DNA of 64,000 nt from Phyllobates terribilis (lineage: Eukaryota), in the NCBI RefSeq assembly GCF_046119375.1, contig NW_027362764.1, forward strand, positions 283,154,001 to 283,218,000, in the 5' to 3' direction. Under the pieces are notes generated by a model. That model was not told where the DNA came from. It ran no database searches and was given only the letters and a program-made list of their open reading frames with translations. Position numbers and translations under genes: made by a program. Each line of letters starts with the position of its first letter. Position 1 is the stretch's first letter. This document shows positions 2,737-57,250 of the stretch, piece after piece.

Positions 2737-3901
2737 TGACGCGCCCCCTGGGCCAGTGTTGTTGGGGATACCCGGAGCCGGATCAGATGGGGGTTGTAGT
2801 CTCCGAGTGGCTGTGACCCGGTCCGTGCCCAGGGTGTCAAGCTCAGTGTGTGGCAGTCCTTATAGATGTTACTAGATGTTCTTTTATGTCGACTACGCCA
2901 CCCGTTGATTTGCGGTCACTACGGCCGCCGCTGCAGCAGGGTCAGCTGAGGCTGGTGATGTGAGTGCAGCTTAGGTAGTATAACCCCCAACGGGAGGGGT
3001 ATAGCCTCAGGGGGTCAGCCGTGGAGGATGGTGGTTGTGAAGGTGCAGCAAGGAGACTCAGAGACATAAAATGCAGTTCCAGGGTTTTACTTACTGGTGT
3101 TGCTCGGGTCACTGTGTACAGCAGTGACCACCCAAGCCGTGCTGCGTCCACCAGGTCCTGGACTCGGTCAACTCCCAGGCAACTCCGGAGTGTGGTCCTG
3201 AGCTCCTTTCTGTCTCTCCCTTCTTCTGGCCGTTCCCACCAGGGATCCACCTAAGTCCGGCTCCCTCGGGCCTCCTGTTGGTAAACCCTTGTCTCTGGGT
3301 TCCCTGACCCTATTCTTGGTCTGCCTTCCGGGTGGATTTAGTGGGTGGTCGTGGCAGATCCTGCCCACGACCTCCGGTTCCTGGCTAAGGTGTGCTGTAG
3401 CCTCTGCCAGCTTGGGATCCGGTACCCTGTTGCCGACCCTTCACCCTATTAGCTCTCTTATGGGCTCTTGGGGTCCCCTCTGTGCCTCTGGGTCTCTCTC
3501 TCTTCTTCTCTGCTCTGCTTCTCAGGCTCTCAGACAGACTGACGTCTCACAGACTGACCCTGATCTAAGATGGTGCCCACCTTATATACTCCCTCTATGT
3601 GTGAGCTCAGGTGACCAGCACCCAATGAGCTCCTAACTTTACCCAGGCTGCCCCCCCTATCTGCCCCTACACTACTGGAATGTTCCACCCCCCCTCCCAC
3701 TCCAGCCAGGAACAGACACTGTCGTACCTGCACATTTCTCTAGTGGGAGTACCATCGGTCTGTTCCCCGGAAATGGGATGTGTGTAGTGCATGCAGCCTA
3801 CTAGCTCAGTTCCACACTCCATCCTTACCCGGGAGTGGAATATCACACCTCTGGGTTGAGGTGCAATACCCCTGTAGCAGCCGAATCCTCAGGGTGCTAC
3901 A
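2737..3901 (-). repeat. 3' LTR (1,165 bp)
   Basis: Direct repeat of 6287-7451 (offset 3,550); I found five substitutions by eye and no indels. Confidence 0.97.
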
Positions 3902-3910
3902 TTCCCCCCT
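3902..3910 (-). promoter_or_regulatory. Polypurine tract (AGGGGGGAA) abutting the 3' LTR
   Basis: The minus strand reads ...ccAGGGGGGAA|TGTAGC. Confidence 0.85.
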
Positions 3911-4320
3911 GGTAAATCACAGCACGTCCTCGGGCTGTAAAATATAAACATCCAAAACATACAATTTTTTTTCATAAACATAAACATAGAAAACATCATA
4001 TAGATATATCAGCAATAAACTTTTCATATAAATAACATTCTTGTTTCTGGTTCCTCCGGTCACTGTGCAACTTGTGACCGGGTAAAGTGCGACAGTCTCT
4101 CTTGGAATAAAACAGTTCCCTATAAAACCGGTAGGGGGCGCTTTAGGAAGCGCAACTATATACAAGGGGATATGGCCGCTCTCAGTCCTCGGCCAGGTAT
4201 TAGGAACTAGGGACACACGGGCATCAGTTCAATTGACTGGTCCCAACGGGGACTATATTTTAACTAGAACAGTTCTTATACCCTGACGGGTAACTATGTA
4301 CAGTCTCTCTCTACCGTACT

Positions 4321-6105
4321 TCAACGACGGCGTCCTCCTGCTACTTCTTTAGATTCTTCAGACCCGTCCGGGTCCTCTTGCTCCTCCTCACACCGCAGCT
4401 CCTCCTCCGTCAGGCGATGCACATGGAGGGCGTAGGGTCCTTTGGCACACTTGTGCCGGGTGAAGGTGACCTCGTCCCCTACATACAGGTCACGACCTCT
4501 GTGTCCCTCCGGCAGATGGCTTTCTACGTCTCTGCGGGTGACAAAGACGTCGCCGGGGGTATGATGGTCTCTAATGAAGCCCCACCCATGCTGCATGTTG
4601 AATTTTATCACAGTCCCGGTGGAAGGGGGACCATGAGCTGCACGGGGTTTCCTCCTGGTCCGGCTCTTCTGCTCCGCGCTCCTTATCTGCGCTTGCTGTT
4701 CCCGGACCCGCCTCTCTCTCCGCTCCCTCTCGAGGACCTCGAGCTGCTGGCGGCAGCATTCTGCACGCTCCGCTGCGGCCGCCCGAGTCTCCTGGGTGAA
4801 CCCCATGAGGTCTTCTCCAGTGGGGTCCCAGTCCCACTCGAACTGTGCCTCCTCCAGCGGGGGCGAGGTCCTCCTTGCGGGCTTCGGAACCGGAATCAGG
4901 GGTTCGTCTAGGGGTCTCTCTTTCCGGAGTCGGGGATGGTGAAACTCCGGTGGCCATATGAAGGGCTGCCCATCCGGGCACGTATGCTGGGCGAACAGGT
5001 CCTCACCCAGGTGCGGTACTTTAGGTGCTATGGGCGCTGTGGTAGTAGTGGCGCCCGGGTTGACCAGGCCTTGCGACCAGGCTTGGGGCACGCTAAAGGA
5101 AAAGGGCACCGTAAGAACGGCGGCGCCCGTGGTTACTCGGCCCTGCGACCAGGCTGGTGGCTCCGCGGAGGTAGGGGGCGCTGTTGGTATTGCGGCGCCC
5201 GGAGGTACTAGGACTTGCGACCAGGCCGATGGTATTTCCTGTTTGGTCGCGCTCGAGGTCGAGGCGTGTGACGTCACAGGGGTCGCGGCCGCGGTTTCCG
5301 GTTGAGGCCTAGTCGGCGGCGGTGACGATGCAGCGACGGGCACGGCAGGGGGAATTTCGGGCTCTGCGACGGGGAGCTGGGGCAGGCACGCGGTTTCCCG
5401 GCTCGGGGTAGAGACGTCCCCTTTACCTGCCTCCGTCCGTTCAGCTCCCTTCTCGGCGCCGTCTCCTGCCTTCATTCCTCCTGCGCCATCCTCAGAGGCG
5501 GTCTGTCTCCTCGTCTCAGGTGGCGTGCTCCGCTGACGGGTTTCGGTCTGCTGGGCCATCTCTCGGCTCCACTCCGCCAACGTCTCTCGCTGCACCCGGG
5601 CCATCCTCCGTGCGAGGCCCTCCAGCGTGGTCTGTGCACACTCCCGGTCTCGGGGGAGCTGTGCTAGGATCTCCAGCAGGCCTTCTGGAGTGGCGACCTG
5701 CAACAGGCTCCTGACCACTGGGTCGGTGCTGCCTGACTCTCCCTCCATCTCCGGGTAGGCTTTCTCTGGACTCTCTTCCAGACGTCTTGTCTCCGGGTGC
5801 GCTCTCTCCAGACTCCTCCAGGCGACACCCATCTTTGCTCTCTTGTTCTGTCTCCGCCCACATTGAGGGTGGTCCCGGGGCAACTTCAGTTCCAGAGGCA
5901 GTTCTCTCACGCTGATGGACACTTCCAGCATCACAGTCTCTGTTGGTGGGCGCGGTTTCCGCTTTTGGCGCCATTCTTCGACCTGGCCCACAATGGGAGG
6001 TGGCCTCTTGCCACCCTCTGGCACGCCCATAATGGCGTCCACTCTTCCAAGGCGGGAAATCTTTGGAAATGGCGGGAATCGTCTCCCAGTGGCGGGAAAC
6101 TCCAT
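4321..6105 (-). CDS. ~594-aa protein in the gag position: helical N-terminal part, Pro/Ala/Thr-rich linker with 24-aa repeats, coiled coil, C-terminal cold-shock domain and acidic tail
   Basis: The frame is stop-free from 6390 (TTG) and the first ATG is at 6105 (MEFPATG...). The C-terminus GTVIKFNMQHGWGFIRDHHTPGDVFVTRRDV...GDEVTF...KGPYALHV (~4414-4620) fits the CSD pattern, with RNP1-like GWGFI and RNP2-like DVFV. Confidence 0.85.
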   Translation of the reverse strand: MEFPATGRRFPPFPKISRLGRVDAIMGVPEGGKRPPPIVGQVEEWRQKRKPRPPTETVMLEVSISVRELPLELKLPRDHPQCGRRQNKRAKMGVAWRSLERAHPETRRLEESPEKAYPEMEGESGSTDPVVRSLLQVATPEGLLEILAQLPRDRECAQTTLEGLARRMARVQRETLAEWSREMAQQTETRQRSTPPETRRQTASEDGAGGMKAGDGAEKGAERTEAGKGDVSTPSRETACLPQLPVAEPEIPPAVPVAASSPPPTRPQPETAAATPVTSHASTSSATKQEIPSAWSQVLVPPGAAIPTAPPTSAEPPAWSQGRVTTGAAVLTVPFSFSVPQAWSQGLVNPGATTTTAPIAPKVPHLGEDLFAQHTCPDGQPFIWPPEFHHPRLRKERPLDEPLIPVPKPARRTSPPLEEAQFEWDWDPTGEDLMGFTQETRAAAAERAECCRQQLEVLERERRERRVREQQAQIRSAEQKSRTRRKPRAAHGPPSTGTVIKFNMQHGWGFIRDHHTPGDVFVTRRDVESHLPEGHRGRDLYVGDEVTFTRHKCAKGPYALHVHRLTEEELRCEEEQEDPDGSEESKEVAGGRRR

Positions 6106-6263
6106 GGATGGCGGGAAAAAGCTGCAAATGGCGGACAACCGGCGGGAAACGACCTGTGATGGGGTCCGTTGGCGGGGACCCTCCGGAACCGGCGGGAGAC
6201 TTCTTGTTAAGGTAACGGTGAACTTTTCTTCAGGCACGCAGTACCCGGTTGTTGCGGGCACGT

Positions 6264-6282
6264 AATCCTGCCGACTACGCCA
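6264..6282 (-). promoter_or_regulatory. Primer-binding site complementary to the tRNA-Ser(AGA) 3' end
   Basis: The plus strand aatcctgccgactacgcca equals the vertebrate tRNA-Ser(AGA) 3' end plus CCA as I recall it (19 nt). It lies 4 nt inside the 5' LTR boundary. Confidence 0.9.
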
Positions 6283-6286
6283 AAGT

Positions 6287-7451
6287 TGACGCGCCCCCTG
6301 GGCCAGTGTTGTTGGGGATACCCGGAGCCGGATCAGATGGGGGTTGTAGTCTCCGAGTGGCTGTGACCCGGTCCGTGCCCAGGGTGTCAAGCTCAGTGTG
6401 TGGCAGTCCTTATAGATGTTACTAGATGTTCTTTTATGTCGACTACGCCACCCGTTGATTTGCGGTCACTACGGCCGCCGCTGCAGCAGGGTCCGCTGAG
6501 GCTGGTGATGTGAGTGCAGCTTAGGTAGTATAACCCCCAACGGGAGGGGTATAGCCTCAGGGGGTCAGCCGTGGAGGATGGTGGTTGTGAAGGTGCAGCA
6601 AGGAGACTCAGAGACATAAAATGCAGTTCCAGGGCTTTACTTACTGGTGTTGCTCGGGTCACTGTGTACAGCAGTGACCACCCAAGCCGTGCTGCGTCCA
6701 CCAGGTCCTGGACTCGGTCAACTCCCAGGCAACTCCGGAGTGTGGTCCTGAGCTCCTTTCTGTCTCTCCCTTCTTCTGGCCGTTCCCACCAGGGATCCAC
6801 CTAAGTCCGGCTCCCTCGGGCCTCCTGTTGGTAAACCCTTGTCTCTGGGTTCCCTGACCCTATTCTTGGTCTGCCTTCCGGGTGGATTTAGTGGGTGGTC
6901 GTGGCAGATCCTGCCCACGACCTCCGGTTCCTGGCTAAGGTGTGCTGTAGCCTCTGCCAGCTTGGGATCCGGTACCCTGTTGCCGACCCTTCACCCTATT
7001 AGCTCTCTTATGGGCTCTTGGGGTCCCCTCTGCGCCTCTGGGTCTCTCTCTCTTCTCCTCTGCTCTGCTTCTCAGGCTCTCAGACAGACTGACGTCTCAC
7101 AGACTGACCCTGATCTAAGATGGTGCCCACCTTATATACTCCCTCTATGTGTGAGCTCAGGTGACCAGCACCCAATGAGCTCCTAACTTTACCCAGGCTG
7201 CCCCCCCTATCTGCCCCTACACTACTGGGATGTTCCACCCCCCCTCCCACTCCAGCCAGGAACAGACACTGTCGTACCTGCACATTTCTCTAGTGGGAGT
7301 ACCATCGGTCTGTTCCCCGGAAATGGGATGTGTGTAGTGCATGCAGCCTACTAGCTCAGTTCCACACTCCATCCTTACCCGGGAGTGGAATATCACACCT
7401 CTGGGTTGAGGTGCAATACCCCTGTAGCAGCCGAATCCTCAGGGTGCTACA
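6287..7451 (-). repeat. 5' LTR (1,165 bp) with a TATA-like box (TATATAAG, ~7131-7138)
   Basis: Direct repeat of 2737-3901. The plus strand cccaccttatatactccc reads gggagTATATAAGgtggg on the minus strand. Confidence 0.95.
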
Positions 7452-7610
7452 CAATCAAAGTGCAGAAAATCTCGGAACAGAGTATAAATCATTTAATTGC
7501 TGTATTATGCACCAATTCTGACCACAGAAGGTATCTTGAAAACTATTTATGATTTATATGGTATATCATTGTTGTAGGTGGAGCTTTCTTTTAAGCATTG
7601 ATAAACATAT

Positions 7611-9351: not shown

Positions 9352-12157
9352 TAGAGATGAGCGGTGTTCGACTAGAACTGTTCGCCAATCTCAAATTCGA
9401 GCTGTTTTGGGCGGTGTTCGAGTCGTTCGACGAACGCGAATGATTTGCGAAAAATTCGGCTGTTCAAGGTTATGTTCGATAACTGGTCGTGCACCAAAAG
9501 CGTGTCCTGCATGTCTGGCGCTATTTAGAGCACTAATCATGCAGGGATTGTCTGCCACTCACTGTAATGCCACAGCCATGGTTGTTGTGGCATTACAGTG
9601 GTTGCCCAAATCGATGGGAACAGTGCTCACAGTGAAACATGAAAAGCCGGCAATTCAGCAGCGGCATACACCAGTACCCGACAGTTTAGAACCGAAAGAA
9701 TAGAGTATCACACATAGATTAGATACATAGAAACATGTCAGTTACATATATAATAAGTACAGTGACAGTGTTGGTCACTGTACTTGTCATTTAGTGTTAA
9801 AGGATTTATTTAAAAAAATATTAGTGTTTTCATGCACCGTCTCTTTAAAAAAGCCGGCCGGCAATTCAGCATCGGTACCCGACAATTTATAACAGAAAGA
9901 ATAGAGCATCACACATAGATTAGATAGATAGAAACATGTCAGTCACATATATAAGAAGTACAGTGATAGTGTTGATTACTGTACTTGTCATTTAGTGTTA
10001 AAATAAAGGATTTATTAAAAAAAAAATTGGCGTGGGGTACCCCGTAATTTTAGTCTCTAGCGGAGGTTGAGCAGACGGCTGGGGCAGATGTTTGAAGCCT
10101 GGGAAGGGGGTAATACCTACGGAGCTTCCCAGGCTACTAATATAAGCCCCCAGCTGAATACCTAGCCTTTACTAGCTATTAAAATGGGGGACCCCAAAAA
10201 AAATGACGTGGGGTCCCCCTATTTTAATAGCTAGCAAAGGCTAGGCAGACAGCTGTGGGCTGATATTAATAGCCCAGGAAGGGTGCCATGAATATTGGCC
10301 CCCTCCCAGGCTAGAAACACCAGCCGTCAGCCGCCCCAGAAATAGCGCATCCATAGGATGCGCCAATTCTGGCACTTAGCCTTGCTCTTCCCACTACCCT
10401 GTAGCAGTGGCAGTGGGGTAATAGGGTTGGGGTTGATGTCAGCTTATAATGCCAGCTGACATCAAGCCCAGGTTAGTAATGAAGAGGCGTCTATAAGACA
10501 CCCCCATTACTAACCCCATAGTCAAAGTTACAAAAAAAACACAAACACCTAGAATAAAGTCCTTTAATTGAAATAAACACACAATTCTTTATTGTTCTAA
10601 ATTAAACCATACTTGCCATCACGCCCATTCCAGCTGAAGCCAACGATCTGCAATAAAAGTAAAATAATAAAGCAACATCATCCTTACCTTTCCATGGTTC
10701 TCACGACAGCTTTAGCTCTGCTACATTCACATGACAGGCTGGACCGCAGCAGAACGCTGCCATCAAGCTTGCCATGCAGCAGACACTGAGAAGCGCAGGC
10801 ATGCTTGCGCTCTGCAGTGTCTGGCTGTGACGGCATAAAGATGAGCCGAGTTCAAGTCCAATGAACTCAGCTCACCTCATGCACGTCACTGACAGCGTGG
10901 GAAAATTCTTCTGCGCATGCGGTGAGTGCAGGAGAATTTTCCCATGCTGTCAGTGACGTGCATGAGGTGAGCTCATGTCCAGTGAACTCAGCTCTCCTCA
11001 TGCACGTCACTGACAGCGTGGGAAAATTCTCCTGCGCATGCGGTGAGTGCAGGAGAATTTTCCCACGCTGTCAGTGACGTGCATGAGGTGAGCTCATGTC
11101 CAATGAACTCAGCTCACCTCATGCACGTCACTGACAGCGTGGGAAAATTCTCAGCGCTGGAGCAGGAGAATTCTCCCACGCTGGGATGGCATTGAGATGA
11201 CAGGCTGGATCGCAGCTGAGCGCTGCCTTCCAGCATGCCATCCTTCATAGACACTGCAGAGTGCAGGCATGCACGTCACTGACTGCGTGGGAAAATTCTC
11301 CTGCACTCACCGCATGCGCAGAAGAATTTTCCCACGCTGTCAGTGATGTGCATGAGGTGAGCTGAGTTCATTGGACATGAACTCGGCTCATCTTTATGCC
11401 GTCACAGCCAGACACTGCAGAGCGCAAGCATGCTAGGTATTCAGCTGGGGGCTGATATTAGTAGCCTGGGAAGCTCCGTGGGTATTACCCCCTTCCCAGG
11501 CTTCAAACATCTGCCCCAGCCGTCTGCTTAACCTCCGCTAGAGACTAAAATTACGGGGAACCCCACGCCAATTTTTTTTTTAATAAATCCTTTATTTTAA
11601 CACTAAATGACAAGTACAGTAATCAACACTATCACTGTACTTCTTATATATGTGACTCACATGTTTCTATCTATCTAATCTATGTGTGATGCTCTATTCT
11701 TTCTGTTATAAATTGTCGGGTACCGATGCTGAATTGCCGGCCGGCTTTTTTAAAGAGACGGTGCATGAAAACACTATTATTTTTTTAAATAAATCCTTTA
11801 ACACTAAATGACAAGTACAGTAACCAACACTGTCACTGTACTTCTTATATATGTGACTGACATGTTTCTATGTATCTAATCTATGTGTGATACTCTATTC
11901 TTTCGGTTCTAAATTGTCGGGTACCGGTGTATGCCGCTGCTGAATTGCCGGCTGGCTTTTTTAAAGAGAGTGTCTTCTGAGCAGTTTGTCAGCTTTTGGA
12001 CACCTTTGAAGGTGTTTTCTATGTGTTTTTGTTTGCCTGCCATTGGTTTTAACGGTGTTCGACGGTGTTCTAAGGTGTTCGACGAACAGCTCCACGAACA
12101 TCCCGGTGTTCGACGAACCGAACCGAACTCAAACACTATGGGGGTGGCTCAACACTA
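9352..12157. mobile_element. Non-autonomous hAT element (2,806 bp) with long internal inverted arms and a palindromic tandem core
   Basis: Terminal inverted repeats (TIRs) tagagatgagc ... gctcaacacta. Perfect 8-bp TSD gtcatgtc at 9344-9351 and 12158-12165. Arms ~9652-10166 and ~11432-11952 are inverted. Confidence 0.92.
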
Positions 12158-20642: not shown

Positions 20643-23600
20643 TAGTGATGAGTGAGCATACTTGTAAGTACTGGTACTCTCCCGAGTACTTGCATGATGC
20701 TCGGGCGGATGCTCGGGGTCCCTCCCTGCATGTTTGGTGCTCTTTAGAGAGCCAATCAACATGCAGGGATTGACTGCCACTCATAGTAATGCCGCAGCCA
20801 TGGTGGTTGTGGCATTACAGTGATTGGCTGGCTGCACAGCGTCATCAGGTCTATATCAGACCTGGCGCCGCTGTTTTCGTCACAGTCACTCCGGAATCAG
20901 GCAGAGTAGGGAGAGGTGCTGCTGTGTCAGGGAGAGATTTGCTTGTGTATTAGGTAGTGTAGGGAGAAAAACCGTACATTACACATATCCATCTTAACAA
21001 ACAGTCCTTCTGAGGACTAATCCATCTGCAGAGATATCAGGCAGGCAGAGTATATAGACAGGCAGTATATATAGCAGACTGCAGTGCATATAGCACAAGA
21101 GGCTCCATTCCAATTCTGCCTTCTGCCGCTGTTAGATATTTCTATGCAAATGCCCAGGTCTCAGGGGCCAGGAATACTTTTTTTTGGATCTTAATCCTCA
21201 TTATTTGCTTAAAAAGCAATCCAGAGAACACCGTTATTCTGCGCCATTTGCTTGTGGCACTGCAGAATACAGCCAGGTCCTTTCCATATTACAGCGCTAG
21301 AAATCCAGCTATTTAAAACTGTGTTTTCTCCGTCACACGGATCACATATATGTTTTCAGAAAATACTAGCATTTTTGGCCCCCATTCCAATTTTTTTTCA
21401 CTGTGTCAGCAAAGTTTTTGACACCGGTTTGCTGTTCAAACTAGTTACCTACAGGCCAGGTATTTAAAACTCTGTTTTCTCCATCACACGGATCACATAT
21501 AAGTTCGCTCCAAACTCAGTCATTTGTAGTGAGCGTGGAAGATACTGTCCTCCATTTAAAATGGGCAAGGCACGTGGCAAGGGACGGGGAACTGGACGTG
21601 ATGGTGATGGTGCATTCAGAGGCTGAGGTCAAGGCCGTGGGCAAGCTGAAATTGTGCCACAACAAACACCCACATCTTCTCGCCTGACCTTCCTGTCCCA
21701 ATTCCTAGGGGACCGCAGCACACCACTATTGAACCCAGAGCAGTGTCAAAAGGTTGTTGGTTGGATAGCGGATAATGCTTCCAGTCACTTAGCCACCACC
21801 ACCACCACCCTGTCTTCCACACGGTCAAGTCTCAGTAGCCGTGAGTCTGGACCGCATATTCCTCACCCTGATCCTCCTTCCTCCCACCATGCCAAGTGCC
21901 CGGAGACATCTGATCCCACACTTGGACACTCTGAAGAGCTGTTCACTTTTCCATTTATGATTCGGGCCACTCGCCCGGTCCACTTGAAGCTGGGCAAGAG
22001 GAGATCGCATGTAGCAATGCCCAAATATTTGAGCAGCCACAGTCACACGAAGGCGATGGTTGGAAAGTGTCACAAGAGTTGGACGATGATGAGACACAAT
22101 TGCCAGACAGTCAGGAGGAGGACCAGGGTACAGAAGTGGAAGACGAGGTGGTGGATCATATAGTAACTGACCCAACCTGGCAGGAGGACATGCAGAGCGA
22201 GGACAGCAGCACACAGGGGGAGGGAGGCAGAGCACCCCAACAGGCAGGAAGAAGCAGTGTGGTGACCGCAGACAGAAGGCAGGCAACCGTTCCCCGTAAC
22301 ACCAACACGAAGGAAGTTGACAGTACAACTGTTAGGTCTTCCCGAGTCTGGTTGTTTTTTAAAGACTCTGCCGATAACCCCAAAAAGGCCATTTGCACCA
22401 TCTGCCAGGCCAGCATCAGCAGGGGTGGCAAAACGACCAGCCTGACCACCACCAGCATGATCAGGCACATGGCAGCAAAGGACCGGACTTTGTGGGCCGA
22501 ACCCCAGGGTCCAGGAACAGTGTCTGCGGGTGGCACCATTGCTTTTTCCGCTGTTGTGCATGCAAGCCAATCCCCTGTCCATGGTGCATGCGAAGATGCC
22601 TCCTGCCCTGCACCTGTCTTTGCACACTCTCAAGTAGCAGCATCAGGAAGCACGTCCATGTCCTTTTCCCAGCGCAGCGTTCAGTTGTCCATACCCCAGT
22701 CCTTGGAACGCAAGCACAAATATGCAGCCAGCGCCCCACAGTCCACACTACTAAATTCTCACATTTCACGACTGCTTGCGCTCGAAATGTTGCCTTTTAG
22801 GCTCGTGGAGATGGAAGCATTCCGCAACCTGATGGCGGCCGTTCCTCGGTACTCGTCCCCAGCCGCCACTATTTCTCCTGGTGTGCCGTCCCCGCATTAC
22901 ACAAGCACGTGTCCCAAAACATTAGCCGTGCTCTCAACAACGCAGTTACCGGGAAAGTCCACCTAACCATAGACACGTGGACCAGTGCTTGTGGGCAGGG
23001 ACGGTGCATGTCGCTGACGGCACACTGGGTTAACATAGTGGAAGCCGGGACAAAGTCGGACCTTGGGACGTAACACGTCCTCTCGATGCCAATGATTGCG
23101 GGTCCTAGATCAATCAGGGTTGCCCCCACGGTCTACAGCTCCTGCACCTCACCCTCCTCAGCCTCCTCCTCCTCTTCAGCCTCCATCTCCAAAATGACCA
23201 CATCAGTCACAAGCTGGAAACACTGCAGCACTGCCTCGGCCAAGCGGCAACAGGCTGTGCTGAAGCTAATATGCTTAAGTGACAAACCGCACAATGCTGA
23301 AGAGTTGTGGACAGCTCTGAAAGAGCAGGCAGATCTGTGGCTCACACCGCTGAACCTACAGCCAGGCATGGTCCTGTGTGACAATGTCGGAACCTGGTGG
23401 TGGCTCTGAGGCGAGGTGAGCTCACTCACATACCATGCCTGGCCCATGTGCTTAACCTCATGGTTCAGCAGTTTCTCAAATCCTACCCGGAGCTGCCGGA
23501 TATGCTTGTTAAAGTATGCCACCTGTGTGCCCATTTTAGAAAGTCACCTACAGCTTCCATAGCCCTTGCCGTGTTTCAGTAGCGTTTGCAGCTTCCGTCT

Positions 23601-25320
23601 CACAGACTGGTGTGTGATGTCCCCACGCGTTGGAACTCTAAACTGCAGATGTTGGGAAGGATTTGTGAGCAGAAGAGGGCAGTTGTTGAGTACCAGCATC
23701 AATAAGGCCGTCGGTATTCAGTTCAGACTCCACACATAAGACCTCAGGAGTGGACATGGATGTCAGACATATGTACCATCCTTCAAAACTTTGAGGACTC
23801 CACCAAGATGGTGAGCGGCGATGACGCCATAATTAGCGTCACCATCCCGCTTCTCTGTCTTCTGAAACACTCTCTGCTCACAATCAAAGAGGATGCATTG
23901 CAGACGGAGCACGATGAGATGGAGCAAGGAACCATACAGGGTGATTACACACAGCCCAGCCTCATCTCATCCCAACGTGGATTGGGTGACATTGAGGAAG
24001 AGGAGGAGGATGAAGGACAGGAGCTAGTTTCATGCGCTATAGACGGTACTACCTGCACAGCTGTCATACTGTCTGTTCAGCGTGGATGGCCAGAGGACAG
24101 AGAGGAGGAGGAGGAGAGCATGGTCAGCCATCCTCTTGGTGAGGACACAGAAGTCTTGCCTGTTAGTAGTCTGGCACGCATGGCTGAGAGTTTAGTTTAT
24201 GCTGCCTTTCCAATGACCCTCGCGTTCTCAAAATTTTGGGTGACAGTCATTACTGGTTGGTGACACTTTTAGACCCACGCTACAAGGAGAACTTTATATC
24301 TCTTATTCCTGAGGCGGACAGGTCTACAAAAATGGGGCAGTACCAGAAGACCCTTGTTGCGGAACTGTTAAAAAAATTCCCATCTGAAAACGCTGGCGGC
24401 ATAGGGCACACTTCGTTGGACAATCAAGGAGTACAGGCGAGAGAGACACAACTTCAATCCATCAGAGGCAGGGGAACACTGTCAAAGTTCTGGGAGAGTT
24501 TTCTCAGACCCTCCCATCGCACAGGCCCTGAGGCGCGGGGTACTCTCACAAGGAGTGCAACGTTTGGGAAGATGCTGAGGGAGTACCTTGCCGACCGTAC
24601 CAATGTCCTCTGTGATTCCTCTGTGCCTTATAATTATTGGGTATCCAAGCTGGATACGTGGAATGAACTGGCTCTATATGCCTTGGAGGTCTTGGCCTGC
24701 CCTGCTGCCAGCGTTTTATCAGAGCGGGTTTTTAGTGCCGCTGGTGAAATTATAACTGATAAGCGCATCCGCCTGTCAACTGAAAATGCTGACAGGCTGA
24801 CTCTTATAAAAATGAACAAGGGCTGGATTGGGCCAGACTTCTCAACACCACCGAATGATAGCAGCATAACATAAACTCAAATCCAGTGTCTTTTCTTGGG
24901 AGGTGTATTCCCATGCACCTTTTCACACCCACACATGGGTATACGCTTCCTGATTTTGGCTATTTGCTTTTGTCCTCCTCCTTCTCCTCATCCTCCACCA
25001 CCATATCACCAGGGTGACCGTGGTCTGTGATGCAACACCAACATAATTTTTTTAAAGGGTGTTTATGATGCCTGTAAAAAAAAAAATTATTCATGTATAC
25101 TCCCCAGGGGTAAATGTTTGTCAGCCCATACACTTAGTGTATGGGCATTACAAGTATAGGAGGCCCACTCCTTTCTAATGGGAACATTTTTTTATGAGGC
25201 CCTCCTCCACGTCTCTTCCAAGGGGCATTGGAGTGCCTCCAAATTTTTGGCAACCCTTGCATTCACTGCATAGGCCAGCACTATGGGAGACCCACTTCCT
25301 AATAATGGGAACATTGTTTT
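20643..25320 (+). mobile_element. hAT transposon with decayed transposase; right TIR not found
   Basis: The left end tagtgatgag resembles the 9352 element, and 20760-20830 matches its subterminal 9539-9602. The right boundary is approximate. Confidence 0.8.
21561..24874 (+). pseudogene. BED-finger hAT transposase pseudogene
   Basis: BED finger (VWLFF...AICTICQ...MIRHM), LLALEMLPFRLVE, CLAHVLNL, DVPTRWNS, LLDPRYK and the dimerisation domain (LACPAASVLSERVFS...KMN). Multiple stops and frameshifts. Confidence 0.93.
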
Positions 25321-33000: not shown

Positions 33001-34089
33001 TGGTGATGCTAAAGTGCACGTATCATTTTACCAAACTTGACTGATACGCTCCTTAGTTTTTTTTGTTCAGCTCTACCTCGAGAGCAGACAGAGCTATGTC
33101 ATAGAAAGTTGACACATCAGTATTATATAGCTAACAAATTTTGATATCAGTATTATATGTCATAGCGTGTCTATGTGGTAGATATTCTTTAACTCTGCTA
33201 TACATACTTAATCTGTGTCCATTCAGAAAGTCCATGTATGTGCAGCTGTAACCCACAATTTAAGCTGCCACTCAGCCACTAACTCATAAATTGTTCCCCA
33301 TCACTCTGTGGTGTGGCACCATAGATGACCGCCTACTTCGCCTCCTTGGCCTACCTGTTATGGCCTAAGATACAGTTACCATGTGGCCATGTGGATATAG
33401 ACCTCTAGCCTCTCAGAAACCTATGGCTATTGAAAACAGCCATTTCTGGTGGGTGGTAACTGCTCTAATGAGGTTACTGTCTGACAGTGATACAATGGAC
33501 GTGGAGCCTGATCAGAAAGCAGGACAGCTGCTCAACACTCTGTGGAATATAAAGTCTAACCATTGAGTACAGTGACAGACAACTACATCACAAACCTTGA
33601 GGTACCTCATTGAACAAGCGGTTCCAACCATATTGAACAGCAGGAGCATTGGATGAATATTTGATCTAATACAGATATTACGTTAGGTAGTGTGGTAAGA
33701 GACTTCCATTTCCACACATGTCCAATCTGAACATCATTTCATGATATATTTTTTATATTTTTTCGACATTCAACCAAGTATATATAGGGTGGGCCATTTA
33801 TATGGATACACCTAAATAAAATGTGAATGGTTGGTGATATCAACTTCCTGTTTGTGGAACATTAGTATATGGGAGGGGGAAAACTTTTCCAGATGAGTGG
33901 TGACCATGGTGGCCATTTTGAAGTTGGCCATTTTGGATCCAACTTTATTTTTTTCAATGGGAAGAGGGTCATGTGACACATCAAACTTATTGAGAATTTC
34001 ATAAGAAAAACAATGGTGTGCTTGGTTTTAACGTAACTTTAATCTTTCATGAGTTTTTTACAAGTTTCTCTTTGTTTACAGCCATTGAC

Positions 34090-35661
34090 ATGTTGCAGAG
34101 GTTAACACGTGAGGAGCAGGTAGAAATTGTGTTGATGTCTGGTGTACGCAGTACCCGGGTCATTGCAGTAGATTTCAATGCAAGACACCCTACGAGACCA
34201 CCCATCTCCCATGCTACAGTTAGCAAACTGCTTGCCAAATTTCATGTAACAGGTTCAGTGTTGGATTTGCCAAAATGTGGACGCAAGAAAACTGTCACTA
34301 ATGAAGAAACATCAGTGGCTATCCTAGCTTCATTCTGCAAGAGCCCACAGCATAGCACTCGTCGCATGTCACTGGAGAGTAGCATCAATCGAACATCCCT
34401 TCAGTGGATATTAGCTACTCACAAATGGCACCCTTACAAAATCCCGCTGCTGCAGCATCTCAACGAGGATGACCCAGATCGGCGCACTGAATTTGCAGAA
34501 TGGGCAAAACAAAAATTGGAACAGGACCCTCAGTTTACACAGAACATTATACTCAGTGATGAGGCAAACTTTTTTGTGAATGGTGAAGTTAACAAACAAA
34601 ACCACCGCTATTGGTCTGACACTAACCCACAGTGGATAGATCCCTCCAAAACTGTTGGAACACAAAAACTGATGGTATGGTGTGGTATATGGGGTACAAA
34701 GATAGTAGGGCCATTGTTCATCGATGGAAACCTCAATGCTACTGGATATCTGAAATTGCTACATGATGATGTGTTGCCCTCTGTATGCACTGAAGATGGC
34801 AAGTTCCCTGAGTTTTTCCAACAAGATGGTGCACCACCACATTATGGGTGTCAGGTCCGAGCATTCCTACATGAACAGTTTCCTGGAAAGTGGATTGGTC
34901 ATTGTGGGCCAGTTGAATGGCCACTAAGGTCTCCCGATCTGACCCCCTTAGACTTTTATCTTTGGGGTCATCTGAAGGTAATTGTCTATGCTGTGAAGAT
35001 ACAAGATGTGCAGCATCTGAAATAATGGATAAATACACATAAATGGATAATCAGACTCATTTCCAGTATAATATTCTATTTAAGAAAATAATGAGGATAC
35101 CCAATATTAATTGTATTAATTCTCATTAAAGTAAATCAAAGAGTGATGATTCATGTGGCATCAAAATTTATAAGTTTATTACATCAAAAAATTACAATAA
35201 TACACAATCAACAGCCACCCCTTATATAAAATTGCCCCTAAAAAAGACCCGTTTAAAAGACTTGGGCAGTGTGGTTCTAGATGAAAATATAGTTTGGCAT
35301 CATGATTAAATACTTCAATTTAGTAATAGACATGATACAAAGATTAAATTCATAAATTCCCAAGATAGGGTAGCATGGATAACATATATTGTAAGTTTCA
35401 TATACATACAGCTTTATGATAACAATCATTCATAACAATAATTCTAGTTGCAATACATGATTCTGAGATATTAAAGGCAAATATATGTATCACATATACA
35501 AAAATAAAAATCTGAAACAACGGATACTGGAAGCCTGTGCTAGCATTTCTTCTACGGTGTTGCTATCAGTGTGTCAAGAGTGGAAGCAGAGGGTTGCATT
35601 GACAATCCAACACAATGGACAGCACTTTGAACACATTTTATATGTGGTCTTAAACTTGTAA
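34090..35661 (+). pseudogene. DD41D transposase interrupted by one insertion; 358 aa and stop-free once it is removed
   Basis: 34090-35022 (311 aa, ...VQHLK) joins in frame to 35518-35661 (QRILEACASIS...HNGQHFEHILYVVLNL*). Confidence 0.9.
35023..35509. mobile_element. Unclassified 487-bp AT-rich insertion with an 8-bp TSD
   Basis: atctgaaa is duplicated at 35015-35022 and 35510-35517; no TIRs recognised. Confidence 0.75.
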
Positions 35662-51023: not shown

Positions 51024-51677
51024 TCAAAACCCCTCTTCGATCCTCCGACCACCGCCACCTAACGCATTTTCAACACCTTCCTGTAAACCGGCTAACAAAA
51101 TATTGTCACCAATTGCGTTCAGATAAACCCCGTCTGCCAACAAAAGATCGCCATTGTTGCCCTCAAGCATACGGTGCTGATCCGCTACACCTCCTGTTGA
51201 ACGTACAAAATGAGACACTCTCATGTTCAATAATCTGCGAGCCCTTTCCAGGGCTGCCAAATCACGAGCTCCTCTCCAGACCCGATGAGGCACTATCTCT
51301 GACCATACCAATACACACCGCTGTGCAAACAAATTTTTAAACCTGTTACAGTTGGTTTTTATCAATCCAATAAGTTCAGCCAATTTTATTCTCCCCAAGT
51401 CATTACCACCAGCATGGATAACCAAGACAACAGGATTTTTACATATCTTGATTATGGCCTCGACCCGATTCAACATTTGAAACCAAGGCAAGCCACAATA
51501 ACCTTCCCAATGACAAACAGTATCTATCTGACCCAACATTGTACGTGAAGGTCGAACCCTTGCCCTCTTTTCTGCCCAATATATATAAGATTGTCCAAAG
51601 ATCCACATGTGGGGAAATGCAACATCTGAAAAGATAAAACCAAAACAAACAACAATTTTAGCAACATGCCTAAACAT
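51024..51677 (-). CDS. SGNH/GDSL-like hydrolase ORF of the Ngaro element (217 aa, stop-free)
   Basis: Block I WIFGQSY, block III VIHAGGNDLG and block V DGVYLN. The canonical G-[DH]-S and DGxH are altered (Q for D/H, Y for the catalytic His). Confidence 0.85.
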   Translation of the reverse strand: MFRHVAKIVVCFGFIFSDVAFPHMWIFGQSYIYWAEKRARVRPSRTMLGQIDTVCHWEGYCGLPWFQMLNRVEAIIKICKNPVVLVIHAGGNDLGRIKLAELIGLIKTNCNRFKNLFAQRCVLVWSEIVPHRVWRGARDLAALERARRLLNMRVSHFVRSTGGVADQHRMLEGNNGDLLLADGVYLNAIGDNILLAGLQEGVENALGGGGRRIEEGF

Positions 51678-51678
51678 C

Positions 51679-51753
51679 TTAGAACAAGTCCGGTCTTACA
51701 TATGTATGAAAACATGATGACTTCCATCTACCCAAATTCCTTATCACGTCATC
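51679..51753 (-). pseudogene. C-terminus of the Ngaro tyrosine recombinase
   Basis: The minus strand reads DDVIRNLGRWKSSCFHTYVRPDLF*, which is the LGRWxS...Y motif carrying the catalytic Tyr. Confidence 0.85.
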
Positions 51754-51755
51754 GC

Positions 51756-54386
51756 TAGTGTTGAGCATTCCGATACTGAAATATCGGGTATCGGCCGATA
51801 TTCGCGGTATCGGAATTCCGATACTTAATTCCGATACTTTTACAATATCGAATACCGGAATCGGAAGTTCCCATAATGCCTGCGCTCTGCAGTGTCTCTG
51901 AAGGATGACAAGCTGGATGGCAGCGCTCAGCTGAGATCCAGCCTGTCATCAGAATGCCATCCCAGCGTGGGAGAATTCTCCTGATCGTTTAAAAGCCGGC
52001 GGGCGGTAAAAAGCCGCCGGCTTTTAAACAATCGCACAGCCCCATACTGCTTCCCCGCAGCCTCCCACCCCGATCCTCCGCTCCCCTCGCCACCTCCCAT
52101 CCCGATCGTAAGTTATGACCGGGCGGGGAGCGCAGCAGCAAGGAGCGGGGAGCGAAGGACCCGGGCAGGGAAGCCGGCAGTGAAAAGACTTCACCGTCGG
52201 CTTTCCCGTTCTGTGCTGCGCTTTCCCGCCGGTTATTTCAAATGAACAGCTGAGGTATCAGGTGATGCCGATCAGCTGTTCATTTGAAGTAGCCGCGGTG
52301 CCCTCAGAGGGTTCACGTCAGTTCATGCTTGACTGCATTGCATGAACTCACATGAACTTTCCCACGGCCGCACAGGTCAGCCACACCTCCCAGACGATCA
52401 GCCCGTCATGATTGGTGTGTGCGGGGTGTCTGTGCGTGTGTCTGCGAGTGTGTGCGGGGTGTCTGTGCGATGTCTGCGGGTGTGTGCGGTGTCTGTGCGA
52501 TGTGTGCGGGTGTGTGCGTGCAGGCAGACATAGGCCGATGTGACACTACTACTCCCATCGGCCTATGTCTGTCCCCCGTCCACTCGTGCCAGCAGGATCA
52601 GCTCGATGGGAGCAGTAGTTCCCATCAGCCTGATCCTGCTATTTAAATTGCCCTACCGTGTCCCCAATAAATTTTAAATACATGTCATTGGTGGCCAGTG
52701 GTTACCTACAATAAATTAGTTTATACATTACCTGTCCCCGCCAATCGCCACCTAAAATAAAGTAAAAAATAAAAAACTACACCTATACTCACCTAGACAC
52801 CTAATTCCCCGAAGCCATCGATCTCCTGTAATAAAATATGAAATAATAAACCACAACCTTATCCTTACCCCTCCGTAGTAGTCCACGAGTGTCCCACGAA
52901 GATCTCCAGTTTAGAGCAGCCACATAGAATGTGACCGCTCTGAACCGCTGCCGCCGCTAGAATGACGGGGCCGTAAAGCAGCCCCGTCATTGCATGAGCG
53001 GGTTCGCCGGAGTTCAGGCAGCGCTGCTCCGGTTAGCTCCTTTACGGCCCTGCTGTATCGTGAGAAATTCCCACGGTACAGCAGTGCCGTAAAGGAGGTC
53101 TCCGGAGCTGCGCTGCCTGAATGCACTCCGGTGACTTCAGTCAGTGGCTCCCGCTGCCGGGAGCGGACGTGTTCCCGGCAGCGTGAGCTTACAGCAGCCA
53201 TGCACAGCTGTCACCATCTCCAGATGTGACAGCTGTGCATGGGAGATCAGCGCAGGAACGTGGACAGGTAACTATTTTTTTTAAGTAAACTAAGAATTAA
53301 ATAAAATTGTGTGTTTTATTTCAAATAAATTATTTTTTTTTGGGTGTAGTGTGTTTTTTCTTTTTAACACTTTGTAGGTTAGTAATGGGGGTGTCTTATA
53401 GACGCCCATCATTACTAACCTGGGCTTCATGGCAGATGGCGCTGACATGAACCCCAACCATATTACCCCCTGCCACTGCACCAGGGCAGTGTGGAAGAGC
53501 GAGGCTAAGTGCCAGAATTGGCGCATCCTACAGATGCGCCATTTCTGGGGCGGCTGACGGCTGGTGTTTCTAGCCTGGGAGGGGGCCAATATTCATGGCA
53601 CCCTTCCTGGGCTATTAATATCAGCCCCCAGCTGTCTGCCTAGCCTTTGCTAGCTATTAAATAGGGGGTACCCCACGTCATTTTTTTGGGGGGTCCCCCA
53701 TTTTAATAGCTAGTAAAGGCTAGGTATTCATCTGGGGGCTGATATTAGTAGTCTGGGAAGATCCATGGGTATTACCCACTTCCCAGGCTTCAAACATCTG
53801 CCCCAGCCGTCTGCTTAACCTCCGCTAGAGACTAAAATTAAGGGGAACCCCACGCCAATTTTTTTTTAAATAAATCCTTTATTTTAACACTAAATGACAA
53901 GTACAGTAATCAACACTGTCACTGTACTTCATATATATGTGACTGACATGTTTCTATCTATCTAATCTATGTATGATTCTCTATTCCTTCTATTCTAAAT
54001 TGTCGGGTACAGATGCCGAATTGCCGCCAGCTTTTTTAAAGAGACGGTGCATGAAAACACTATTATATTTTTAAATAAATCCTTTACACTAAATGACAAG
54101 TACAGTAAGCAACACTGTCACTGTACTTCTTATATATGTGACTGACATGTTTCTATCTATCTAATCTATGTGTGATGCTCTATTCCTTCTATTCTAAATT
54201 GTCGGGTACAGATGCTGAATTGCCGGCCGGCTTTTTTAAAGAGACGGTGCATGCAAACACTATTATATTTTTAAATAAATCCTTTACACTAAATGACAAG
54301 TACAGTAAGCAACACTGTCACTGTACTTCATATATATGTGACTGACATGTTTCTATCTATCTAATCTATGTGTGAAGCTCTATTCT
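51756..54386. mobile_element. Second large non-autonomous hAT element, truncated at the right end
   Basis: Starts tagtgttgagc. ~51880-51985 is the reverse complement of 11163-11270, and ~53355-54386 is the reverse complement of the left arm of the 9352 element, with about three ~187-bp units. Confidence 0.85.
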
Positions 54387-54886
54387 TTCAGTTTTGGGCA
54401 CCACATTTTAAAAAAGACATAGACAAACTGGAGCAAGTTCAGAGAAGAGCGACCAGAATGGTGACTGGTCTGCAAACTATGTCCTATGAGGAACGGTTGC
54501 AGGATTTGGAAATGTTTAGCTTGCAAAAAAGAAGACTGAGAGGAGACTTAATAGCTGTCTACAAATATGTCAAGGGCTGTCACATTGTAGAAGGATCATC
54601 TTTATTCTCATTTGCACAAGGAAAGACTAGAAGCAATGGGATGAAACTAAATGGGAGGAGACACAGATTAGATATTAGAAAAAACTTTTTGACAGTTAGG
54701 GTGATTAATGAGTGGAACAGGCTGCCACGAGAGGTGGTGAGTTCCCCTTCAATGGACGTCTTCAAACAGAGGCTGGACAGACATCTGTCTGAGATGATTT
54801 AGTGAATCCTGCTTTGAGCAGGGGGTTGGACCAGATGACCCAGGAGGTCCCTTCCAACTCTACCATTCTATGATTCTATGATTCTA
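54387..54886 (+). mobile_element. 5'-truncated CR1 LINE 3' end
   Basis: ORF2 C-terminus (FWAPHFKKDIDKLEQVQRRATRM...RRLRGDLI...WNRLP), 3' UTR gtcccttccaactc and an (ATTCTATG)n tail. Confidence 0.95.
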
Positions 54887-57250
54887 AATCCAGCTTGGAG
54901 AATACCTTAGCTCCTACAACCTGGCTAAACAAATCAGGTATCAGAGGAAGAGGGTATGGATCTCGGATGATAATTTGATTTAATTCCCGGAAATCTAACC
55001 AAGGACGTAGACCGCCATCTTTTTTCTTCACAAAGAACCCTGCCGCCACAGGAGAAGATGAGGGCCTAATGTGTCCCTTCTCCACATTTTCCGCAATGAA
55101 ATCCTTCATGGCTTGTCTCTCAGGGCTAGAAAGATTATACAGTCTGTACTTTGGTAGTTTAGCTCCGGGGTTCAGGTTAATAGGACAGTCATATGCATGA
55201 TGAGGAGGCAATTCCTGACACCCCCTCTCAGAAAAAACGTCCTCAAAACCAGACAGAAAAGGAGGTAATATTTTTGTAGAGACAGTAGCAAGGGAAATAT
55301 CTAAATAGTTCTCATGGCTTGCCAATTCACTAACGGATTATGTTTCACCAGCCAGGCGAGACCCAAAACGATTGGGGTGAGAAAACTGTCCAGGACATAG
55401 CAAGGGATTATTTCACAATAAACCGACCCCACCCTCAGTTTTACAGTATGTACAGTCTGAGTAAATGCTTTATGTGCAAGTGTCAATGACGTAGATGGAA
55501 ATAGGTTTAGCTAAAGTACAGCAAGTAAGACCATGAGTTTTCACAAACTCAGCATCTACCATGCTGACTCTGGCTCCACTATCAACAAACACAGAAATTT
55601 TCTCGGTTTTGCTCTCTAGCACCACCTCTGCTGTCAGGACAAACCGGAAACTGCAGGTTGGCAACAAATGCACTCCTTGCTTATCCTCCTCCAGACTACA
55701 AAGAGTTAATTGAGTCTCCTTTTGTTTAGGAATTGAAGGACAGGTCCCAACAAAATGTCCCTTTTTCCAACAAAACAAAACATACACCGTTTTTCTTGCG
55801 AATCTTCGGGGAAATGTAGGATGTAAAGGCCCTCCCCAACTGCATGAGTTCCTCCACCTCCCCCTGCACTGGTTCACCACCAGACTACTCCCCCGGCAGA
55901 GGTACATAACCCCGACAAGAAAGCCCCGGAGAAGGTGGTCTCACCGGTTTGTCCCGAAGGCATATCTCAAGACATATGGCCAACGACATGGCAGCCTCCA
56001 AGGACTGAGGGGTTTCATATACTGCCAAGGCATCTTTCAACCTTTCAGTAAGACCCTCACAAAATTGGCTTCTAAGGGCTGAGTCACTCCATTGAGAATC
56101 CGTTGCCCATCTACGGAATTCAAAACTACGTCTCCACTGACCGATTCCCTTGCTGAAGGCGACGTAGCCTAGACTCAGCCAAGGCGACTCGGTCAAGGTC
56201 ATCATAGATGAGGGCCAGAGCCCCGAAAAACCCCTCCACAGACTGGAGACAAACCGAGTCCTGTGGCAAAGAAAACGCAGTATCTCCCTGCAGTAGAGAG
56301 ATCACAATTCCAACCCGTTGCGCCTCATTTCCAGAGGAGTAAGGACGAAGTTTGAAATACAGTTTGAACGCCTCCTTGAATACAAAAAATTGTACCTACC
56401 TCCTGAAAACCTGTCTGGGAGGGCAATCTTGGGTTCAGGCTGGACAGGCCCACCTGCTGAGACCCCCACATTAGCGACCTGTAGCCACTGATACTGTTTC
56501 TGAACCTCACAGCGGAGATTATTCACCTCCAGAGACAGACTGCGCAGCCGCTCTGCGAGCTCTGCAACTGAAACCATTCCGAGGAAGAAAAGAAAAATAA
56601 ACTCCACGCCTAAAAAACACACAAAAAAAAACACCAAATGTCAGTATTTTTTTACTTTTTCAAAATATGTACGGCCAGCGATAATGTCACGCAAGGTGTA
56701 GGAAAGACTAAGTGCAACACGAAGGGAAATGGGAAAAGGGGGCCCAGACTCTAGAGAAAGGGGTAGTGGAAAGCTCCTAGGCTGACCTATATCACCCTGT
56801 CTCCCCCAAACGTCCCTATATTGGTTCCGCACTAATCGCCGAACAGGAACCTTGCCCTGTCTTTCCCTGGCATTTAGCCCTGGCTAGGGAAGGGAGGGGA
56901 TGAGCGTTAGACGATCCCCACTGACAACTAAAGACCACAAGGGAGAACAAACAAGGGAAGACAGCTTAGCTTTAGTCAACTTCAGAGAGATGAACACGTG
57001 TCTTCTTAGCACCAGAGAGGAAGAAGTACTGCACTAGCTCCAAGACTTCACAAGGGGTCATGTGAGTATCGCCGGCACCTCCTTCTAGCAAATAGCAGGT
57101 ATTTATACACCCAGTCCAGGGTGTTAATCAGCAAGAGGAAGGTGGGTCCTAGAGAGACAGCTTCTAGGAAGGTGTCTGTAATGCCAAACTAAGAGATCTC
57201 CTGCAACCACTGCAGGGCAACTGTCTGTCACTTCTCACACACCTGTGACA
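54885..57250 (-). mobile_element. Truncated Ty3/gypsy (sushi/chromovirus-like) element: 5' LTR, gag, protease and the start of RT
   Basis: LTR 56685-57250 (tgtcac...gtgaca). gag from 56577 (PEPKIALPDRFSG; retrotrans-gag helices; degenerate CCHC), protease VDSGA and RT N-terminus (SSPVAAGFFVKKKDGGLR...SKLDL), cut off at the CR1 tail. Confidence 0.92.

Follow-up and report, generated by a model that had tools for sequence, protein, structure and literature searches.

What kind of retroelement keeps the terminal signals of a long terminal repeat (LTR) retrotransposon, lacks pol and encodes as its only gene a protein with a cold-shock domain (CSD), and what does it gain from that gene? The question is raised by an element at positions 2737–7451 of a 64,000-nucleotide (nt) window of the Phyllobates terribilis genome (NW_027362764.1; all coordinates are positions in this window, and element sense is the minus strand). 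The element is a non-autonomous ('satellite') LTR retrotransposon that keeps the cis signals of a helper, namely the LTR ends, the primer-binding site (PBS), the leader and the polypurine tract (PPT), and in which gag-pol has been replaced by a CSD gene that is under strong purifying selection.

Structure of the element

Two direct LTRs of 1,165 bp with TG...CA ends occupy 6287–7451 (5′ LTR) and 2737–3901 (3′ LTR) on the minus strand and differ by five mismatches and no gaps, in agreement with the original prediction of about five differences. They are bounded by a CAAT target-site duplication (TSD) at 2733–2736 and 7452–7455 (plus-strand letters). The PBS (6264–6282, minus strand; 18–19 nt) starts 4 nt after the 5′ LTR and is the single match to its sequence in the whole window, where 0.02 would be expected, and the PPT (3902–3912, minus strand) adjoins the 3′ LTR and is near-identical to that of the helper described below; the predicted TSD, PBS and PPT were thus all located at the element ends. 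The PBS is of a type that we take to be tRNA-Ser; an intact tRNA-Ser gene was sought with ARAGORN in five loci and none was recovered, these loci being elements with an extended PBS.

The interior between the LTRs (3902–6286; 2,385 bp) contains one long stop-free frame. At E ≤ 1, Pfam finds in it only PF00313 and no protease, reverse transcriptase (RT), RNase H, integrase, CCHC or Gag family, which bears out the predicted lack of pol and of a CCHC knuckle. The element is neither an autonomous Ty3/Gypsy element (Metaviridae) nor a Gag-only element of the BHIKHARI type.

The encoded protein and its cold-shock domain

The single open reading frame (ORF; 4321–6030, minus strand) encodes 569 amino acids (aa) from a conserved ATG at 6030. 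The stop-free frame itself spans 4321–6465 (minus strand), and its first Met, at ATG 6105, would give the 594 aa originally proposed; of that proposal the open frame stands, and the start was placed 25 codons too early. The ATG at 6105 sits in leader repeats common to the helper and is present in two of the 15 intact copies of a positional sample introduced below, as against 15 of 15 for the ATG at 6030 (these copies having been selected for that start), so the longer start is specific to a subfamily and the family protein in this copy has 569 aa. An overlapping 237-aa frame was considered as a second gene and rejected, since it measures 16–203 aa from its ATG across 16 copies and is not conserved.

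The CSD (residues 471–540; 4411–4620, minus strand), expected at ~4414–4620, is matched by Pfam PF00313 at 4417–4620 with E = 1.6e-8 and 34.7 bits against a curated cut-off of 27; the CSDs of relatives score 22.8–38.1 bits, four of six falling under the cut-off. The final 141 conserved residues were modelled (predicted local distance difference test, pLDDT, 86.5) as a 48-residue helix and a five-stranded barrel of the oligonucleotide/oligosaccharide-binding (OB) type, which settles the original claim of a CSD. The predicted fold superposes on CspA (1mjc) with a template-modelling (TM) score of 0.89 and a root-mean-square deviation of 1.7 Å, and on YB-1 with a TM score of 0.79. The domain is 31–36% identical to Y-box proteins and CspA and keeps the RNP1 aromatics and the RNP2 Phe. 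Because the loop after RNP2 is of Y-box length, with a one-residue gap to YB-1 and a gap of five to bacterial Csp, capture of the domain from an animal Y-box gene is weakly favoured.

Upstream of the CSD, the protein contains a conserved helical segment (residues 96–160; 5551–5745, minus strand), which matches no known family, and a long Glu/Arg/Gln-rich helix directly preceding the domain (residues 413–459; 4654–4794, minus strand). At full length, the protein is modelled as mostly disordered (pLDDT 40.7). A search of the ESM Atlas with the whole protein and with the helical segment gave no usable match, and a capsid fold search gave none at E ≤ 0.001, which at this pLDDT is weak evidence. 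Comparison of the ORF profile with helper Gag returned a probability of 0.1–0.2%, i.e. no similarity, and the ORF therefore appears to be unrelated to helper Gag; residues 96–160 may be a very diverged helical remnant of a Gag. A complex prediction for this segment with the helper capsid, run without alignments, scored 0.00, which speaks neither for nor against contact between the two.

Family size, age and selection

A search of the 10.6 Gb P. terribilis genome with the interior gave 7,199 candidates, and the 40 matches that were scored were all 94–100% identical to the query. Interiors measured ~2.4 kb in all of the 30 closest copies; an unbroken frame through the CSD was found in 26 of these 30, which were chosen for likeness, and a 4-bp TSD in 21 of the 23 loci among them with resolved ends. 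The CSD motif KFNxQHGWGFI, searched as a degenerate pattern, matched the genome 14,472 times and the LTR end plus PBS 35,423 times, the reversed controls giving 0 in both cases. A positional sample was taken as the first 40 of the 35,423 matches along C1, all from one chromosome end, so that its proportions are rough: 20 copies carried the CSD, 15 of them with an intact ORF, and the rest were 12 gag-pol elements, one internally deleted gag-pol element, six CSD-less or truncated relatives and one unrelated interior. Two further loci of the family, L019 and L022 (C4:227604950-227613965), are tandem LTR–interior–LTR–interior–LTR arrays.

Selection was assessed from the ratio of nonsynonymous to synonymous substitution rates (dN/dS), pooled pairwise over 20 intact copies, the pairs not being independent. 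The ratio is 0.51 in the N-terminus, 0.26 in the helical segment, 0.51 in the linker, 0.17 in the pre-CSD region, 0.08 in the CSD and 0.37 in the tail, and in frames other than that of the ORF it is mostly 1 or more. In likelihood-ratio comparisons with omega = 1, 2ΔlnL reached 301 for the CSD and 294 for the pre-CSD region, and 65, 28, 6 and 6 for the other regions. The ORF is thus kept as a gene, as had been supposed. In an element that probably depends on a helper, constraint of this strength suggests that the main beneficiary of the protein is its own encoding lineage.

A one-off deletion of a gag-pol element was also considered as the origin of this copy and is ruled out by the size of the family, by the comparison with the helper and by the lack of Gag similarity. 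Absence of a CSD, an unselected ORF and a one-off deletion were the outcomes checked among those named beforehand as telling against the original prediction, and none of them occurred.

The probable Ty3/Gypsy helper

The 12 gag-pol elements of the positional sample have interiors of 5.3–6.0 kb. In the one copy scanned, Gag matches PNMA, Retrotrans_gag and zf-CCHC, the last two below the cut-off, and Pol has the Ty3/Gypsy order of RT, RNase H and integrase, with a weak protease match; a 26-mer from the helper RT matches the genome 20,951 times. The DNA that the helper and the CSD element have in common comprises the last ~280 nt of the LTR (71–77% alike in the window copy) and up to ~200 nt of the leader, at 70–77%, and elsewhere they share only pieces of <65 nt. 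The corresponding 5′ leader of the window element (6031–6263, minus strand), which contains short repeats and is ~70–77% like the helper leader, probably includes the packaging signal. A candidate poly(A) signal, AGTAAA (3086–3091, minus strand; a motif match alone), is present in the helper LTR too. The LTR 5′ end, the PPT and the 4-bp TSD, none of which was used in the sampling pattern, are alike in helper and CSD copies, and the two are of similar youth, with a median LTR–LTR identity of 99.3% for 12 helper copies against 99.7% for 19 CSD copies. Insertion sites of CSD copies (n = 40) form a loose palindrome with TG before and CA after the TSD.

Five partner criteria are given in the available text of a study of wheat elements (PMC9744471), including the PBS, LTR termini, contemporaneous activity, some promoter conservation and subfamily structure. 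Three of the five are found here, i.e. the same PBS, conserved LTR termini and activity at the same time; promoter likeness to the helper extends no further than the leader and the last ~280 nt of the LTR. The element RNA is very probably packaged, reverse transcribed and integrated by this co-resident Ty3/Gypsy family with its PNMA-type Gag and its Pol. The prediction of a young non-autonomous family with a Gypsy partner is thus supported, and pol-containing elements carrying the same LTR end and PBS exist.

Two kinds of locus also bear on the mechanism. In L079, which is apparently recombinant, the leader is of helper type and the 3′ part belongs to the CSD family, a structure that co-packaging of helper and CSD element would allow. 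Sequence of the tRNA copied beyond the 18-nt PBS was found at 28 genome sites, and the four sites examined were one CSD-type copy (L150), one helper copy and two other elements. The loci concerned (L149–L152 and L161) apparently reflect primer read-through during reverse transcription; in L150 a short common sequence links the extra tRNA sequence to an internal site, and the extra sequence is apparently a trace of tRNA-primed reverse transcription.

Other elements and proteins with related cold-shock domains

A second young, pol-less CSD family in the same genome has no DNA similarity to the window element and unrelated LTRs. Its LTRs are ~1.0 kb long and 94–99% identical, its PBS is the same and its interiors measure 2.6 kb (six of eight loci). 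The ORF of this family combines an Arg-rich N-terminus with a CSD that is 34–39% identical to that of the window element and evolves at a dN/dS of 0.09 over eight copies; the LTR end plus PBS gave 513 matches. Its loci (L153–L157, L160 and L162–L173) often lie in tandem arrays.

An older CSD lineage (L125, L126, L134, L135, L137 and L138) has a different PBS, interiors of 2.1–3.1 kb, many stops and LTRs that are 74–95% identical. Flanking direct repeats were found in eight of 14 fetched loci, with a clear TSD in one (L126), and pol fragments occur nearby in four of the 14, outside any resolved repeat pair.

At the protein level, annotated relatives exist in Ranitomeya variabilis, R. imitator, Anomaloglossus baeobatrachus and Bufo bufo; P0002 and P0003, named from Phyllobates terribilis, may be the host's own and were not counted as a second species. 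In a tree of 28 CSDs, which leaves out P0089 and L125, 16 of the 28 rows form one clade (99/99), which brings the Ranitomeya and Anomaloglossus proteins together with the window family and the older lineage; three outgroup CSDs share an open fork with the second family and the Bufo proteins, so that the tree does not unite all element CSDs. Related CSDs also occur in three unnamed proteins, P0115, P0153 and P0123. The canonical Trp is kept in P0153 and P0115, and P0115 keeps the His too; these two proteins may be nearer to the captured source of the domain. The annotated fusions P0003 and P0157, of a CSD-element ORF with a transposase-like part foreign to it or with a serine protease, are probably gene-model artefacts.

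Function of the cold-shock protein

We lean slightly towards the view that the CSD protein binds element RNA, and best of all its own template, and that it works like a private Y-box messenger ribonucleoprotein (mRNP) component that raises the share of helper particles taken by that RNA. Helper Gag and Pol would package, reverse transcribe and integrate the satellite RNA; the CSD protein would bind element RNA, preferably the RNA from which it was translated, and by stabilizing or shielding it would secure it a larger share of helper particles, a benefit that would be quantitative and partly shareable and not essential in cis. Binding of element RNA would be the simplest route for a CSD; according to PMC6040738, host YB-1 supports HIV RNA metabolism. 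The accessible text of PMC11152451 cites work on Ty3 elements expressed in oocytes of Oophaga pumilio, which concerns elements other than this CSD family.

Copies without the CSD bear directly on this proposal. Three of them (L062, L066 and L073) have differing breakpoints, and two are sister to different intact subfamilies; they are interpreted as independent deletions, as would fit a protein that benefits mainly its encoding lineage.

Several observations weigh against the proposal. The junction of a further CSD-less deletion (L097:1309-3088, element sense) matches the genome 133 times with up to two mismatches, several of these junctions lying in tandem at ~3.1-kb spacing; the size of this lineage rests on junction matches, one copy (L097) having been fetched. 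Copies without a CSD can therefore spread and the domain is not strictly needed in cis, so that its benefit should be quantitative or partly shared; CSD-less or truncated relatives likewise make up six of the 40 sampled copies. On the side of the protein, two surface residues with a base-stacking role on the binding face of YB-1 and CspA, Trp in KWF and His in FVH, are replaced in the element, which has an FVxRRxV-type motif, and for this reason nucleic-acid binding may be weak or different. As regards the helper, its U3 (the unique 3′ region of the LTR) is not common to the CSD element, and the common PBS and LTR 3′ end constitute the sampling pattern, so that they show that such helpers exist but are not independent evidence. 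Helper target sites are few (n = 10) and agree with the CSD profile on the left side only, and a helper for the second CSD family, sought in 12 sampled copies, was not found.

The 133-copy lineage could alternatively signal complementation, or dispensability, if the protein were a trans-acting anti-silencing or derepression factor that dampens silencing or decay of RNA by the host for every related transcript in the cell, those of the helper included; helper and satellite would then be mutualists, with CSD-less copies riding along. The great abundance and equal youth of helper and satellite, as well as the presence of CSD genes in three families differing in LTR or PBS, are compatible with such a factor. 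However, a freely shared product would be hard to hold at a dN/dS of 0.08 among thousands of copies, and the sample contains 20 CSD copies against six CSD-less relatives, which makes this explanation rather unlikely.

The main idea of the original prediction, that the protein is a particle component packaged along with its RNA, either as a nucleocapsid-like chaperone or as an adaptor bringing that RNA to helper Gag, would account for the position of the ORF in place of gag and for conservation of the N-terminal helical segment (dN/dS 0.26). It would also accord with the order of a long helix and then a nucleic-acid-binding domain, which resembles LINE-1 ORF1p. Helper Gag, however, already has a CCHC knuckle of its own, the ORF has neither Gag likeness by profile nor a capsid fold match in its low-confidence model, and the N-terminus of the second family is different and Arg-rich. 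The notion that the CSD replaces nucleocapsid is weakened accordingly, and we regard a particle component as improbable.

Y-box proteins bind inverted CCAAT-type sites, and one such site lies 38 nt upstream of a candidate TATA box (7132–7138, minus strand; a motif match alone) in the 5′ LTR of the element; the single helper LTR inspected lacks it. As the U3 is family-specific, the CSD protein might act on the DNA, as a Y-box-like transcription factor at the promoter of its own family; but a stretch of 1.2 kb should contain one such 5-mer by chance, and this role seems very improbable. Maintenance of the ORF by selection on the host, through addiction or domestication as proposed for zebrafish BHIKHARI in the accessible part of bioRxiv 10.1101/2024.03.25.586437, is scarcely credible, since subfamilies of thousands of dispersed young copies show the constraint when compared with one another, a pattern that selection during transposition should produce, and the ORF is already not intact in five of the 20 sampled CSD copies.

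Surroundings of the element

Decay elsewhere in the window was checked roughly: five other frames of 200–343 aa lie outside the element, two of them with hAT-type Pfam matches. A fragmented hAT transposase occupies 21935–24871 (plus strand), with zf-BED and hAT dimerization matches in separate frames, and frames at 33994–35022 (plus strand; 343 aa), 58959–59921 (minus strand; 321 aa) and 51027–51695 (minus strand; 223 aa) have no Pfam match at E ≤ 0.01. Related repeats, 90–98% alike, lie at 9645–11969 and 53300–54393; the first contains an inverted pair (9645–10166/11432–11953) and resembles a non-autonomous DNA transposon. A short fragment at 54879–55115 (minus strand) is 42% identical to the helper RT region, and an array of 32-bp tandem repeats (1703–2200) lies directly to the left of the insertion.

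Relation to known systems and implications

The closest functional parallel is found in wheat, where, according to the available text of PMC9744471, RLG_Sabrina and RLG_WHAM represent high-copy non-autonomous Gypsy elements that, as here, have PBS and LTR ends in common with a helper, RLG_Wilma. In some Sabrina variants gag-pro is likewise replaced by unrelated coding sequence. By analogy, the frog element may be said to work like the Sabrina/WHAM–Wilma system, although the wheat cargo described there is Gag, capsid-like or unknown, in contrast to a CSD held at a dN/dS of 0.08 in a vertebrate host.

Among frogs, the Xenopus laevis elements 1A11, xretpos and lambda-olt 2-1 (PMC4585706) are also LTR elements with an ORF that lacks pol homology. 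They are expressed in embryos and number tens to hundreds of copies, compared with 14,472 CSD motif matches here; the available text of that paper, against which the comparison could be made by description only, does not contain the term 'cold shock', names no helper and supposes that transposition has been lost. Zebrafish BHIKHARI-1 and BHIKHARI-2, as far as the accessible part of their description (bioRxiv 10.1101/2024.03.25.586437) extends, are likewise young, pol-less and partner-mobilized and have a single long ORF (617 aa); that ORF, however, encodes a Gag of lokiretroviral origin that contains a capsid domain, whereas the frog ORF has no detectable capsid and its helper is Ty3/Gypsy. 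YBX1, YBX2 and FRGY2 and bacterial CspA have the same OB-type CSD fold as the element protein, in which, unlike in these proteins, the domain is transposon-encoded and lies near the C-terminus behind a long helix, with the binding-face Trp and His replaced.

Literature searches, with coverage that excluded subscription journals, supplements, Repbase and Dfam, yielded no description of a CSD encoded by an LTR element; the vertebrate co-occurrence of the two topics in the accessible part of PMC13583293 concerns a host gene. The CSD would thus be an addition to the domain repertoire of LTR elements.

On a broader scale, neobatrachian frogs may carry an old and widespread class of satellite retroelements with a captured CSD protein as the only gene, a cassette that would predate the split between toads and poison frogs, would have been kept by several LTR lineages that use different primers and would favour its RNA in access to helper particles. 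Such a class would parallel satellite piracy on the eukaryotic side and would make a measurable contribution to giant frog genomes; we put this forward as a tentative and rather doubtful extension. Existing annotations already misname ORFs of this kind, as in the 'Y-box-binding protein 2-A-like' of Bufo bufo, if those copies are element-borne.

In P. terribilis itself, strong selection acts on a nucleic-acid-binding protein captured by a non-autonomous element whose copy number rivals that of its helper (14,472 CSD against 20,951 helper RT matches), and the family would amount to ~70 Mb of the genome if each CSD match represents a full element. It offers a handle on how non-autonomous elements compete for helper machinery and on what drives the recent LTR expansion in very large frog genomes.

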